A stretch of DNA of 64,000 bases from Solirubrobacteraceae bacterium (GCA_036008645.1 DASYNI010000011.1:59107-123106); one strand, 5' to 3'; counted from the stretch's first letter, positions 38,001-46,676 are shown. Program-made: numbers and translations. Notes: generated by a model from the sequence alone, not told the origin.

Positions 38001-38046
38001 CGAGTGAGAAACATCCCTTTTCACACGGGACAACGGTCGTTAGAGT
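38001..38046 (+). promoter_or_regulatory. candidate promoter: CGAGTGAGA box + TTTTCA-N17-TAGAGT
   Basis: Box at 38001..38009, -35 at 38018..38023, -10 at 38041..38046, ~130 nt upstream of the collagen-like gene. The same box and spacing occur at 39200. Confidence 0.45.
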
Positions 38047-38175
38047 CTCACGCCATACCGCGGGTGAGAGGTGAGTACGAACGCTACGAGGTGCCGGGGC
38101 CGTCTCGGCAGCAGCGCTCTGCGTGCAGGCCGCCGCGCACACGCGTCAACACGCAATGTTAGACGGGAGGGAGAG

Positions 38176-39042
38176 ATGCTGTCATTCATCAAGCGGCGGC
38201 TGACCTACGCCAACGTCGCCGTCACGGCCGCGCTCGTATTCGCGATGGCCGGCGGCGCGTTCGCTGCGAGTCGCCAGGCCGGCCCCATCGCGAGTGGCGC
38301 CGGAAGTAAAGGCAAAGCAAAATACGTCATCACGTCCAAGAGCCAGATAAGCCCGGCAGTGCTGAACGCGCTGAAAGGGGCCGCCGGCGCGACGGGATCC
38401 GAAGGCAAGCCTGGAGCTGCTGGGAAAGAAGGGCTCGCCGGGAAAAATGGGGTAAACGGCAACGAAGGCAAACAGGGCAACGAAGGCAAAGAAGGCAAAG
38501 AAGGCAAACAAGGCATCCCGGGCGAAGAAGGCGAACCGGGCAAAGAAGGCTCGCCCTGGACGGTCAACAGCACACTGCCTGTAGGCAGCGCAAAGGTCGG
38601 GAAAAAAGGCAAACCGGGTCCGCAGGAGACTGGTGTTTGGACGTACGTGCCAGCAGCCGTCGACACCAACGAAGACGTGCCGATCTCCTTCCCAATCAAG
38701 TTGGCGACGGCGTTGCCTGCCGAAAACGCGACGTCCCACGAAAAAAGCGTGCAATTCATCGAACCAGATAAAGCAGAAGGCCAGCTATTTGAAGCTGCCG
38801 CGATCACCCAGGGCCACTGCGGCGGCACCGCCGAACATCCGGAAGCGGCGGCCGGGTACCTATGTATCTTTATAGGTTACGAAGTCGGCGAAATTAGCTA
38901 CGAAGGCGTCTACTCGCCGCTGACGGCGGGCCGCCAAAGCGCTGAAAGGGGAGTGACGGCAACAACTGGCGCCGTACTCGTCCTCGAGGCCGAAGAACTA
39001 AAACGAGAAGAGGTCGGCACCTGGGCAGTCGGTGGCGACTAA
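38176..39042 (+). CDS. secreted collagen-like (GXY repeat) protein with globular C-terminal domain
   Basis: Signal peptide MLSFIKRRLTYANVAVTAALVFAMAGGAFA. About 20 uninterrupted GXY triplets (GAAGATGSEGKPGAAGKEGLAGKNG...GEPGKEGSP) and a 160-aa C-terminal domain. RBS GGGAGGGAGAG. A-ending codons throughout. Confidence 0.85.
   Translation: MLSFIKRRLTYANVAVTAALVFAMAGGAFAASRQAGPIASGAGSKGKAKYVITSKSQISPAVLNALKGAAGATGSEGKPGAAGKEGLAGKNGVNGNEGKQGNEGKEGKEGKQGIPGEEGEPGKEGSPWTVNSTLPVGSAKVGKKGKPGPQETGVWTYVPAAVDTNEDVPISFPIKLATALPAENATSHEKSVQFIEPDKAEGQLFEAAAITQGHCGGTAEHPEAAAGYLCIFIGYEVGEISYEGVYSPLTAGRQSAERGVTATTGAVLVLEAEELKREEVGTWAVGGD
38377..38553 (+). repeat. collagen-like GXY triplet repeat (about 20 triplets)
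   Basis: Gly at every third residue from G68 to P126 of the 38176 protein. Nucleotide periodicity is visible as ggcaaagaaggcaaagaaggcaaacaaggc. Confidence 0.85.
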
Positions 39043-39072
39043 GACCGATCTGGCCGGCGTAAGTCGGTCCAC

Positions 39073-45600: not shown

Positions 45601-46122
45601 GAAGCCCTCAAAGGTGCTTGTTCGGAAAAGCAGTTTGCTGGCAACCCGGCAGGGTGCCCGGCCGGCTCCTTCGTGGGTACGGCGACTGCCGTGACGCCGG
45701 TGCTCAACAAGCCGCTCAGCGGACCGGCGATCTTCGTCTCTCACGGCGGGGCAGCATTCCCCGATCTGGATGTGATGCTGCAGGGCGAAGGCGTGACCGT
45801 CGATTTGGCAGGCTCGACAAACATAGTCAAAGGCATCACCAGCTCCGACTTCAAGGCGGTGCCTGATGTACCAGTCACACGATTTGAACTCACGCTTCCG
45901 GAGCAAAAGAACGCCGCTCTGGCTGCCACGGCCAACCTTTGCTACCAGACCACCACCAAGCGCGTGAAGGTCAAAGTGCACGGCAAAACTGTCTACCGCA
46001 AGCACAGAACCGAGCAGCGTCGCACGCTGGTCATGCCCACCAAGATCACCGGCCAGAACGGCGCGGTAATCAACCAATCCACCAAGATCGCGGTCGAAGG
46101 ATGCGGCACGAAGGCTCGCTGA
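42682..46122 (+). CDS. 1146-aa secreted protein with four repeated Cys-loop modules (uncharacterised)
   Basis: Signal peptide ending SPAAA. A four-fold recurring motif [LM]P-x-G/K...C-x(8-13)-C-[PS]-x-x-S-x-[IV]-G. A QAGSHPY motif. ATGA overlap with the upstream gene. Confidence 0.85.
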   Translation: MISVAYADRIASSRCRAVAALLTAVTVALTLTASPAAATQTPHWAMTSIPAPTWFHPGDVDDIYEVAAMNDGPVSTSGPLTITDKLPKGLTVAAITADVEPGATDVAPAQFVPCEETTAAKIVTVTCTSGIPVHSDRMVAVKISVDVPTKATGTLSNFASISGGGAETASAENLTPVTPVAQKAPFGVSVASDLVADDGSPDIQAGSHPYAYTTILAYNSAGISLDEECGAAFVVSGRQNPANTQGCPNQAGAPRNVEVALPPGFVGDPMATPRCIARKFQTAGYRGCPAASQVGVAELEFFDSELTQNQLVPIYNVEPTPGQPAELGFSISTIGHVAMFFHLHPLADGGYALTSTVSQITQFVSLHALVFTLWGVPAEESHTPIRLSEAEGQECASGTDEDCADRAAPRPFLTLPTSCTGVPLGAGVGVDSWQNPLAAPLPVTAEAGLGTITGCETLALGEPSIAVAPSTDQAGSPAGYGVRIAVPQNEEPEALGTPDVRDVQVTMPEGTVISPSAANGLQDCSSALFGQGEETVGHCPAQSRIGTVQITSPLLDQPITGNVYVGEPECSPCTAQQAEEGKMVHVLIEAKLTSPQREAEMTQTERENYRPAVLIKLSGDTMINRQTGRLTTVFDENPQLPFNELNLEIEDGQDAPLVNPTSCGPIAATAHLTAWSALVNAEGTVSDPASEANISSSAVSIGGCATPGFSPAFSAGMTSSQRAGAFSSFAVNLQRPDGQQTLGSVTMHMPPGLVGMLSNVQLCGEPQANEGTCSAASQIGTTTAVVGPGTEPYTIGGGKVYLTGPYGGGSFGLSIVVPAEAGPFHLAGLNGAGGEGDGSVVVRGSIKIDPTTSALTIVTNPIPTQLNGIPLDLRHVTVEVNREGFMFNPTNCEAMTIAGTIDSSSGAVADVSYPFQAVDCAALPFNPSFAVATHAKHTRRDGAYLHVDVTSGGGQANIKSVFVELPKVLAAREEALKGACSEKQFAGNPAGCPAGSFVGTATAVTPVLNKPLSGPAIFVSHGGAAFPDLDVMLQGEGVTVDLAGSTNIVKGITSSDFKAVPDVPVTRFELTLPEQKNAALAATANLCYQTTTKRVKVKVHGKTVYRKHRTEQRRTLVMPTKITGQNGAVINQSTKIAVEGCGTKAR

Positions 46123-46244
46123 TGTGCAGGAAGTGTGGATAACAGCCAGTCGCATCGAGATATGGAAACACGGCGCGGTACAGAATCGGCGTGGTGGGGC
46201 GCAATCTTGGACCGCGCTTGCCGAGTGGGCAGTTGGCTGAAAAG

Positions 46245-46676
46245 ATGAGTGCAAGTATGCAGAGGGCCATTGATAAGCGGAAGGAGATAGTTGCGGTAGC
46301 TGTCATCGCAGCTATGCTCTCGCTGGCTGCATGTGGCGGCTCCTCAAAAGCGCCGAGTCAGACGGCGAACTCCGAAAAGACCAGCTCTACGCAATCACAG
46401 TCGAACTCGTCGAGTCAAACGAAGAGTGCAGAAACACAAAGTCCTTCGCGGTCTGCCGAAGAAGCGCGCGCGAAACGCGTGCTCGTGGCACGTATAGCCG
46501 GCACAAGGAACTTGGTCCAATGCTTGCGTGCACACGGGGTTCACGTGCCGCCGCAGAACCTTGCAAAGGGCTTCTCCGCCAAGGGCGTCGACTCAACCAG
46601 CAAGCAGTTCAGGCAGGCCTACCCGGGATGCCTTCGCGCCTCAGTTAAGGTGTACCACATCGCGTTGCAGGACTGA
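46245..46676 (+). CDS. small lipoprotein
   Basis: Lipobox AMLSLAAC followed by a GGSS and S/T/Q-rich linker. About 143 aa. The start is ATG 46245 or 46257. Confidence 0.65.
   Translation: MSASMQRAIDKRKEIVAVAVIAAMLSLAACGGSSKAPSQTANSEKTSSTQSQSNSSSQTKSAETQSPSRSAEEARAKRVLVARIAGTRNLVQCLRAHGVHVPPQNLAKGFSAKGVDSTSKQFRQAYPGCLRASVKVYHIALQD

Follow-up and report, generated by a model that had tools for sequence, protein, structure and literature searches.

What occupies the interval between folP and purA in this Solirubrobacteraceae chromosome, where a run of genes for exported proteins departs in base composition from its surroundings? The window analysed here is a stretch of 64,000 nucleotides (GCA_036008645.1 DASYNI010000011.1:59107-123106) forming part of a Solirubrobacteraceae metagenome-assembled genome (MAG; public records JGI 3300037248 contig Ga0372958_0000003 and NCBI VGP17_ locus tags), and the island in question covers positions 38,001 to 46,676. 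An earlier note, made from the sequence alone, had described it as a foreign island encoding an all-secreted module of five proteins, and had suggested a surface fibre, adhesin or coat. The two large proteins are called PD40 and BIG here and the small four-Cys protein is called P1. The island features are as follows.

38176..39042, + strand: collagen-like exported protein, 288 aa (Pfam Collagen, GXY repeats)
39411..39977, + strand: P1, small exported protein, 188 aa (signal peptide ending ASASA, four invariant Cys)
40154..42685, + strand: PD40-like exported protein, 843 aa (N-terminal hydrophobic signal, β-propeller model)
42682..42685, + strand: ATGA stop/start overlap of PD40 and BIG, read from the sequence
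42682..46122, + strand: BIG, exported all-β protein, 1146 aa (signal peptide, DUF11/CLIPPER-like domain at about 44–177, four modules)
46245..46676, + strand: small lipoprotein, 143 aa, or 139 aa from the start at 46257 (lipobox LSLAAC, read from the sequence)

The reading that we favour, and to which we give slightly better than an even chance, is that the island is a local copy of the genes for an exported protein complex specific to the Solirubrobacterales lineage, that it sits in a fixed folP–purA slot in which alleles have been replaced or have diverged anciently, and that its products form an exposed, wall-associated assembly of the adhesin or coat type.

The PD40–BIG pair

PD40 and BIG form a nearly invariant, translationally coupled pair. 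The overlap of their reading frames in the window recurs in the gene calls of three other loci (L082, L083 and L084). Public gene calls start PD40 at TTG 40337 and BIG at an internal ATG 42817; with these later starts both signal peptides are lost and the ATGA coupling is hidden. The upstream starts used here are supported by the family alignments.

Loci with BIG relatives were collected by scanning one genome per GTDB species, which yielded at least 577. Among the best 79 of these, 78 are labelled Solirubrobacterales or Solirubrobacteraceae and one is labelled only 'uncultured Actinomycetota'. For 84 of the 87 BIG genes examined in other loci, the gene immediately 5' on the same strand is PD40. 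The junctions of these 87 genes include 55 NTGA overlaps of 4 nt and 28 more in which the start codon falls within 30 nt. Tandem arrays of the pair are frequent, and two MAGs carry at least six copies each. The earlier note had named as a refuting outcome that homologues never co-occur in other genomes; PD40 and BIG nearly invariably do.

The remaining island genes are distributed differently. Full-length P1 accompanies about 17 of 79 loci, a collagen-like gene lies near about five, and the lipoprotein gene was found only in two orthologous loci. Given this patchiness, the conserved unit is PD40–BIG, usually with a regulator, and the other three genes are accessories of a sub-family. The five-gene module proposed earlier thus holds for its universal PD40–BIG core but not for its other three members. 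The iterated P1 hidden Markov model (HMM) drew many matches confined to the N-terminus (HMM positions 1–60 to 1–130) in small secreted proteins; these were read as mainly signal-peptide similarity, and the P1 count covers roughly full-length matches only (17 loci). A regex screen for a small secreted protein 5' of PD40, positive at 25 of 77 loci, was hampered by over-long open reading frame (ORF) calls and was not used as evidence.

Of 80 loci, 49 encode a TetR-family regulator of about 340–400 aa near the pair, its gene typically being the next one after BIG and in the same orientation. In an example that was scanned, TetR_N was matched at E 1.6e-8 and a winged helix of MarR-like type at E 7.6e-4, which is short of the Pfam cut-off, and TetR_N genes flank the pair in L083 and L084. 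The earlier statement that no regulator is seen inside the island is correct but does not extend to the loci elsewhere.

Directly after BIG in L022, L024, L031, L046 and L047 there are one or two extra genes for proteins of about 600–750 aa that cluster with PD40 or BIG. They may represent a third, shorter member type of the module.

Structure predictions for the two large proteins

The AlphaFold2 (AF2) model of PD40 (predicted local distance difference test score, pLDDT, 83.4; predicted template-modelling score, pTM, 0.81) contains one propeller of about 670 residues (approximately residues 65–735), a disordered linker (750–790), C-terminal basic helices (794–828) and a conserved Cys. The mature N-terminus is conserved as CPN..LR..LPDCRAYEQVSP, and the C-terminal 60 residues hold 15–24 Lys or Arg residues in the 40 listed members. 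Foldseek aligned the model with the propellers of sortilin Vps10p, S9 peptidases, TolB and GH74 (TM 0.2–0.38, E ~1e-7). With Pfam, the PD40 repeat is sub-threshold in the window copy (18.4 versus 20.9 bits) and is detected in 48 of 51 family members; 865 homologues were found.

Two identities suggested by these matches were rejected. In PD40 the signal helix runs straight into the ~670-residue propeller with no N-terminal α/β domain, unlike TolB, and TolB itself (4r40) gave a TMq of 0.18; the 'TolB-like' label from one source reflects repeat-level resemblance only, in a host that belongs to Actinomycetota. An S9 prolyl oligopeptidase or DPP-IV was discarded because only a linker and helices follow the propeller, and none of the 51 members has a Peptidase_S9 match in Pfam. 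Some PD40-family proteins are longer (1,240–1,350 aa) and carry PhoD_N, fn3 or Pur_ac_phosph_N-type domains and, in one case, NHL (P0176, P0187, P0212, P0229; L084 1-401). These fused domains might hint at a ligand or partner.

BIG is modelled as all-β (pLDDT 82.9, pTM 0.69). The model shows a rod-like chain of immunoglobulin-like (Ig-like) β-sandwiches, namely a DUF11-like domain followed by four modules of about 220–270 aa apiece, each with a conserved Cys pair. The modules are homologous to one another in hhalign (E 9e-18 to 2e-4) and match no Pfam family. Across 48 sequences 17 Cys are invariant, the mature N-terminus PHW is conserved, and the C-terminus consists of a Cys and a short basic tail, GTKAR in the window copy. 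Both large families end in a Cys followed by a Lys/Arg-rich tail. More than 1,239 BIG homologues were found. Identity among the alleles compared is 48–62% in the N-terminal half and 75–85% over residues 701–1100.

The best Foldseek matches of BIG were the Ig-like domains of PrgB (8beg, E 4e-13), AgI/II C123 and the Saf pilus; further matches were integrin α legs (E ~1e-6), the MG domains of α2-macroglobulin and a Tupanvirus DUF11 protein (E 8e-16). The matches to adhesin stalks, a pilus, integrin legs and a DUF11 protein were counted in favour of a surface assembly. The Foldseek comparison of AlphaFold models proposed in the earlier note returned, for PD40 and BIG, fold-class matches only; in all the searches taken together, the stretch matched no characterized pilus, S-layer, toxin, phage or defence system. 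The predicted folds (a propeller, a tandem Ig-like stalk headed by a DUF11-like domain, and a stalk of the collagen type) fit the surface fibre or adhesin-like assembly that it had suggested.

DUF11 (CLIPPER) domains are typical stalk-builders of fibrillar adhesins; an isopeptide triad of Lys, Asp and Asn is listed for 9IFR, and some DUF11 domains are without the triad (PMC12617251). BIG scored 21.1 bits against DUF11 (PF01345; cut-off 24.6 bits, E 4e-4, residues 63–174), and PF01345 is precomputed for 9 of the 120 listed homologues. In the alignment of the N-terminal domain (A1), N70, D84 and N157 are kept, the first strand reads W-x-I-x-S with no conserved Lys, and C114 and C127 are invariant. 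A thioester at the conserved LCGQ near the C-terminus was considered and rejected; only the Cys is invariant and the spacing is unlike that of CGEQ.

Divergence at the folP–purA slot

Three alleles of the slot were compared: the window, L082 (an ENA contig of 1.9 Mb) and L081 (a Logan contig). In both L081 and L082 the order is folP, XRE, collagen-like gene, P1, PD40, BIG, lipoprotein gene and purA, followed in L082 by a copy of P1 (P1b), a dnaC-like gene and dnaB. Since the arrangement occurs in three independent assemblies, it is neither a mis-assembly nor a strain-specific insertion. The left border of the divergent block is marked by the following gene.

37603..37842, - strand: XRE-family helix-turn-helix (HTH) gene (Pfam HTH_3, E 1.3e-15)

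Between the window and L082, the flank genes (TetR-like, XRE1, folP, dnaC-like and dnaB) have protein identities of 91–99% and synonymous divergence (dS) of 0.20–0.29. The island genes have identities of 48–66%, a dS of 1.24–1.80, which is five to nine times that of the flanks, and a ratio of nonsynonymous to synonymous divergence (dN/dS) of 0.16–0.33. Border genes are intermediate: XRE2 and orf37040 have a dS of 0.47, and purA a dS of 0.74 with 88% identity. The XRE border protein is 100% identical to that of L082, yet its dS is 0.47. DNA identity to this relative falls from 83–93% to 65–69% between ~37,855 and 46,750. The three alleles are about equidistant from one another (BIG 64–66%, PD40 58–63%, P1 48–57%); for folP, in contrast, the identity of the window to L082 is 91%, and identity to L081 is 79–81%. 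One row of the dN/dS comparison (BIG_Chalf) was out of register and was disregarded.

High synonymous divergence with moderate dN/dS implies that the common ancestor of the island alleles is much deeper than that of the surrounding chromosome. Rapid protein evolution alone does not explain it; either the alleles were replaced by recombination from diverged lineages or allele classes have long been maintained. At a second orthologous locus (L004–L015) the module has a dN/dS (ω) of 0.11–0.62, mostly 0.2–0.45, against flanks mostly at 0.06–0.25, and module divergence scales with flank divergence, so that the decoupling is specific to the folP–purA slot.

In these three alleles the slot shows what is expected of a replacement-type hypervariable locus, that is, shared position and flanks with cargo dS far above flank dS. 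The earlier term 'foreign island' was right as to the deviant composition but not as to the origin of the locus, because the five genes stand in the same slot of L081 and L082 and their families are almost confined to records labelled Solirubrobacterales. Given the five- to ninefold excess of dS in the island, it is the allele that is foreign and not the locus, and 'fixed-slot hypervariable locus' is the better description.

Both relatives contain an extra gene for a 351-aa protein between XRE and the collagen-like gene (L082 6348-7403, - strand; L081 3777-4832, - strand), with no Pfam match and 69% identity between L081 and L082. The gene is not in the window, so that the gene content of the slot varies too.

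Base composition

GC content per kilobase is 0.55–0.63 at 38–47 kb and 0.66–0.75 at 1–38 kb, with extra dips at 48–49 kb and 54–56 kb. Third codon positions bear most of the drop in the island: GC at these positions (GC3) is 0.61–0.70 in the five genes compared with 0.867 ± 0.032 in 22 background genes (z = -5.3 to -7.9). Low GC3 is also found in three P1 paralogues beyond 38.0–46.7 kb, at 48499-49062 (+ strand), at 54040-55113 (- strand) and, in a frameshifted copy, at 55307-56463 (- strand). The island and background fractions are 0.48 and 0.07 for AAA among Lys codons [AAA/(AAA+AAG)], 0.80 and 0.17 for GAA, and 0.25 and 0.11 for CAA; TTA, CTA and ATA together occur 11.1 and 3.6 times per 1000 codons. 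Both the compositional shift that had been judged by eye and the switch towards AAA, GAA and CAA with the appearance of TTA, CTA and ATA are thus confirmed by calculation.

The shift is shared by the family. Although nearly all finds of the family come from high-GC Solirubrobacterales, the GC of BIG falls short of that of its flanks in 73 of 79 loci, and the GC of PD40 does so in 76 of 79. Slightly depressed GC is therefore a trait of the gene family and not of a donor. A depression of GC3 throughout a lineage-restricted family poses a small puzzle about the upkeep of base composition in high-GC bacteria.

Export signals and the smaller island proteins

The five ORFs agree with those of the earlier note, and all of the products that it had named are present (collagen-like protein, four-Cys P1, PD40-like protein, four-module Cys protein coupled through ATGA, and lipoprotein). 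Export signals were judged by reading the N-termini and by conservation in the family alignments (A1–A3). The N-termini are basic, continue into a hydrophobic segment and end in a small-x-small site or the lipobox LSLAAC, and these signal regions are conserved across the alignments. That all products carry a signal peptide or lipobox was accordingly upheld for five of five. The further observation in the earlier note that the island holds no enzyme, transporter, sortase signal, secretion ATPase or regulator agrees with Pfam, NCBIfam, PHROGs and PADLOC, none of which placed an enzyme, transporter, secretion ATPase or regulator within 38.0–46.7 kb.

All five C-termini are without an LPXTG motif and hydrophobic segment, and no sortase gene was found in the island or among the recurrent neighbours in 80 loci. 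Pfam and NCBIfam detected no SLH, LysM, GW, CWB2 or like wall-binding domain in the five proteins. PADLOC defence models matched none of seven proteins, and the matches to PHROGs and PADLOC were confined to collagen repeats and signal peptides. As the note had anticipated in declining to assign the large proteins and the small family, PD40, BIG and P1 match no curated family or solved structure by sequence: profile searches of PDB chains with all three gave no match, even at E<=10 for two P1 profiles (14 and 100 sequences).

The collagen-like protein opens with a signal peptide or anchor (MLSFIKRRLTYANVAVTAALVFAMAGGAFA); it contains some 20 GXY triplets, and its C-terminal domain spans roughly 150 aa. 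It belongs to Pfam Collagen (PF01391; E 4.4e-9, 36.4 bits against a cut-off of 27.2, residues 68–126), and its PHROGs tail-fibre matches are confined to the GXY region (residues 54–150). For the C-terminal domain there was no PDB sequence match and no detectable Pfam relative. Orthologues in L081 and L082 are 53–62% identical, and relatives are found near the modules of L041, L048 and L051. The GC3 of the gene is 0.66. An LPXTG adhesin of the Scl1/Scl2 type (NCBIfam NF038329/NF038330) was rejected on scores of 45.7 and 40.6 bits against cut-offs of 325 and 400, and on the C-terminus, ...EVGTWAVGGD, which has no LPXTG.

P1 has four Cys (C57, C83, C119 and C159) that are invariant in an alignment of 100 family members. 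A strong ribosome-binding site, AAGGAG, is read about 8 nt upstream, and the GC3 of the gene is 0.61 (z = -7.9). A profile search of 1.84 billion representatives returned 3,955 relatives at E<=1e-3 and 2,021 at E<=1e-10. There is no real Pfam family for P1, long or multi-domain relatives giving sub-threshold noise only, and no PDB sequence match. No relation between P1 and any of the BIG modules was seen in hhalign (probability <1%).

In the lipoprotein a Ser/Thr/Gln-rich linker follows the lipobox. Its NCBIfam matches were weak and of the signal or lipobox type only, and nothing meaningful was found in the PDB. Orthologues were seen in L081 and L082 only (39% identity).

Proposed assembly and alternative explanations

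In the reading that we favour, PD40 and BIG would be exported by the Sec route and oxidized outside the cell. Made in a fixed ratio, they would combine into a propeller-plus-stalk heteromer, and polycationic tails bound electrostatically would keep it on the Gram-positive wall. The C-terminal half of the stalk, which is the better conserved, would be proximal and the variable N-terminal half distal, and the propeller and distal stalk would present the exposed, ligand-contacting surface. A collagen-like trimer, P1 and the lipoprotein would be accessory surface components of the sub-family. Exposure would cause alleles to be maintained or exchanged between lineages, with phages, predators or neighbouring cells as the likely driver, and we propose that this pressure on an exposed surface accounts for conserved flanks around a deeply diverged centre. 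Elsewhere each pair would be switched by its own TetR/MarR-type regulator; here the regulator would be missing or remote.

Several points weigh against this picture. The surface location of the island proteins is a prediction from sequence and models, and no recognized wall anchor (LPXTG, SLH, LysM or transmembrane anchor) is present in them. Retention by the tail is likewise conjectural, and the BIG tail in the window is merely GTKAR. It is gene coupling alone that points to a heteromer. The TM scores of the structural matches are low (0.1–0.38) and speak for fold class, not function. The persistent low GC3 also counts against it. Gene-wide dN/dS is below 1 and diversifying selection is not demonstrated; high dS indicates age or transfer, not cause, and only three alleles of the slot were compared.

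The likeliest alternative is an extracellular capture or binding module for a polymer, metal or small molecule, with the propeller as binder and TetR-type induction, on a logic like that of a polysaccharide-utilization locus. It would suit the many paralogous pairs per genome (at least six in two MAGs), the TetR-family regulators (typically TetR_N plus MarR-like) near the pair in 49 of 80 loci as well as in L083 and L084, the ligand binding known for large propellers (sortilin, GH74), and the fusion of some PD40-family members to PhoD_N, fn3 and Pur_ac_phosph_N. We nevertheless consider it unlikely: linkage to a gene for a hydrolase, transporter or binding protein is not consistent, and only 10 loci have an ABC ATPase, 2–5 kb off; the window copy has no regulator in the island; and deep allelic divergence at a fixed locus is unexpected for nutrient uptake. 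Recent horizontal transfer of a genomic island from a lower-GC donor outside the lineage is improbable. A GC3 lying 5–8 standard deviations below background, the rare AT-ending codons and an island dS five to nine times that of the flanks, which requires allele transfer or very old polymorphism, are what it would predict. It does not agree with the matching genes, order and slot in L081 and L082, with families almost confined to Solirubrobacterales-labelled records (at least 577 loci) and no low-GC donor taxon visible, or with the lower GC of other pair copies relative to their flanks in 73–76 of 79 loci. No integrase, tRNA or mobile-element gene was found by Pfam analysis of the window proteins or a tRNA scan (border direct repeats were not searched), and BIG had no match in the phage, plasmid and viral-contig collections.

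Polymorphism at the slot can also be read as a means of self/non-self recognition, the propeller–stalk pair being a homotypic or heterotypic cell–cell receptor whose allele lineages are under balancing selection. In its favour are the neighbouring, co-translated and Ig-rich surface genes, the three alleles whose equal distances do not follow the relatedness of the genomes, the variability of the distal half and the dS gradient at the borders. However, no cargo or toxin is linked, the support comes from sequence pattern, arms races over phage receptors give an equal population pattern, and a recognition locus would not usually be present in many paralogous copies per genome; we regard it as rather improbable, a shade more so than a recent foreign island. 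We give a similarly small chance to a broader proposal, set on a par with that foreign island, in which the pair is a polymorphic recognition device (to recognize kin or partners, or to serve as a phage-receptor decoy) under balancing selection at the slot, the paralogues are TetR/MarR-switched to change the coat, and the AT-richness is functional, either as the target of an Lsr2-like silencer or as a by-product of suppressed homologous recombination between alleles. A prophage remnant or phage-tail-like element, with the collagen-like protein and BIG as tail fibres or receptor-binding proteins, is very improbable indeed. The collagen-like protein does match PHROGs tail-fibre families (E down to 1e-12), and XRE-type HTH genes and a toxin–antitoxin pair lie to the left of the island, but the PHROGs matches cover GXY repeats only and P1, PD40 and BIG have none. 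In addition, BIG had no tblastn match in 50,697 phage records, nor in the plasmid collection, and no relative among IMG/VR contigs; there are no capsid, terminase, tail-tube or integrase genes; no pair was seen in an inducible prophage or tailocin cluster in 85 loci; and all products bear Sec signals, which virion proteins lack.

Comparison with known systems

Fibrillar adhesins (DUF11/CLIPPER, PrgB and AgI/II) resemble the locus in having a signal peptide, a long chain of β-sandwiches, a DUF11-like domain and no enzyme domain, and they supply the best structural matches of BIG (8beg, E 4e-13; 7l0o; 4tsh; the Tupanvirus DUF11 protein, E 8e-16). BIG differs from them in having no LPXTG or other sorting signal, a single N-terminal DUF11-like domain rather than mid-protein repeats, and conserved disulfides. 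It also has W-x-I-x-S at the position where the isopeptide Lys of DUF11 would be expected. The putative head here is a separate polypeptide, the propeller, instead of an N-terminal adhesive domain. The integrin α subunit, in which a propeller is combined with an Ig-like leg, is an architectural analogy only: here propeller and leg are two proteins with no sequence relation to it, and homology is not claimed. The PD40 propeller is also much larger (~670 residues), with the 10-bladed sortilin propeller as its best match.

PD40 shares PD40 repeats and the propeller fold with TolB, S9 peptidases and sortilin; it is without the TolB N-terminal domain and the α/β-hydrolase domain, and TM is just 0.2–0.38. 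TolB, whose 6-bladed propeller binds Pal, acts in the Tol–Pal system of diderm envelopes, and the host belongs to the Gram-positive phylum Actinomycetota. Scl1/Scl2 of Streptococcus, BclA of Bacillus and Lcl combine, like the collagen-like protein, a signal peptide with a GXY triple-helix region and a globular domain at one end. The NCBIfam SclB/SclA matches of the window protein lie in the repeat region only, it is far below the family cut-offs (45.7 versus 325 bits), and it differs further in having no LPXTG and a C-terminal domain without relatives.

Replacement-type flexible islands are known for O-antigen and capsule loci, S-layer cassettes, and pilin and flagellin islands. The slot resembles these in its fixed position, conserved flanks, diverged alleles, jump in dS at the borders, lower GC and predicted surface products. 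It differs in that its cargo consists of structural proteins of uncharacterized families, not glycosyltransferases or a known S-layer protein, and in that the core pair is also present as many ordinary paralogues elsewhere in these genomes.

Three further classes were rejected: sortase-assembled pili or MSCRAMM adhesins (no sorting signal in the five C-termini and no sortase in the island or 80 loci), an SLH-type S-layer protein (no known wall-binding domain in the five proteins), and an integrative island or prophage (no tRNA in 64 kb, and no integrase or phage family beyond the collagen repeats). The curated libraries and literature searched contained no description of split genes for a propeller and an Ig-like leg, of the four-module Cys-pair design, of the Cys-basic tail, of the linked regulator or of the P1 family. 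The locus is a real feature and is best filed among the exposed protein assemblies of the cell surface, with a function that we infer; it occupies a hypervariable slot and draws on three uncharacterized, lineage-restricted families.

Common in soil, the Solirubrobacterales are Actinomycetota of which most of our knowledge comes from MAGs; to our knowledge, nothing is known of their cell surface. The analysis defines three large uncurated families of exported proteins. It also defines a gene pair with strict conservation and translational coupling, one of the exported gene sets that have expanded most in Solirubrobacterales genomes. One copy of the pair lies beside the core genes dnaB and purA, with alleles far older or more foreign than the chromosome around them. 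If it is indeed a surface receptor or coat, phage host range, aggregation and adhesion in this abundant, uncultured soil group would probably depend on it, and it would serve strain-level population genetics as a convenient marker locus.

P1 paralogues and neighbouring genes

The window holds four P1 paralogues, all of low GC; the three beyond the range of the earlier note are listed here with the other features that flank the island.

33343..34782, + strand: candidate module-associated regulator, 479 aa (BLASTP 24–30% identity, E 7e-20 to 4e-9, to module regulators)
46684..46701, + strand: GC hairpin resembling a terminator, in the gap that separates the lipoprotein gene from the convergent purA (weak; the regional count of such sites is not above chance)
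48499..49062, + strand: P1b, 75% identical to P1, alone between purA and the dnaC-like gene, with a P1-like ribosome-binding-site context
54040..55005, - strand: P1c (P0243), its P1 domain 66% identical to P1 and extended at the C-terminus by about 130 aa (candidate starts read)
55307..56463, - strand: fourth P1 paralogue, long type with a C-terminal extension, frameshifted (two ORFs match P1 HMM positions 1–90 and 88–182)

The counterpart of P1b in L082 has an equal position and only 40% identity (dS 2.2). GC3 is 0.61 in P1b and 0.595 in P1c (z = -8.4). The fourth paralogue is either a pseudogene or an error in the MAG consensus. Scans for tRNA, Rfam families, promoters and terminators gave nothing above chance, and there is no tRNA in the 64 kb.

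The 479-aa protein is encoded 3.4 kb upstream of the island in the conserved flank (95% identity and dS 0.20 to L082). Its relatives include regulators in L017, L042, L079, L062 and other loci, and it has no Pfam match of its own. The sequence resemblance links it weakly to the island as a possible regulator.

A HEPN and nucleotidyltransferase (MNT-type) toxin–antitoxin pair at 34813-35747 (- strand) is absent from the otherwise 88–93% identical flank of L082 and is thus a strain-specific insertion. Between dnaB and rplI, at 51332-52492 (+ strand), lies a gene for a 386-aa cytoplasmic protein with a Walker-A-like GEAEVGKT and no Pfam match; it is 67% identical to its L082 counterpart (dS 1.1, neighbours ~0.25), a second divergent patch unrelated to the secreted module. 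A gene at 49135-49872 (- strand) encodes a 245-aa AAA+ protein with IstB_IS21 and Bac_DnaA matches and an N-terminal Cys cluster, CPFGLCDGSG...CRCR. It lies directly downstream of dnaB (49869-51344, - strand) with a 4-nt overlap and is 93–94% identical in L082; its sequence suggests a helicase loader of the DnaC/DnaI type, coupled to dnaB, in a member of Thermoleophilia.

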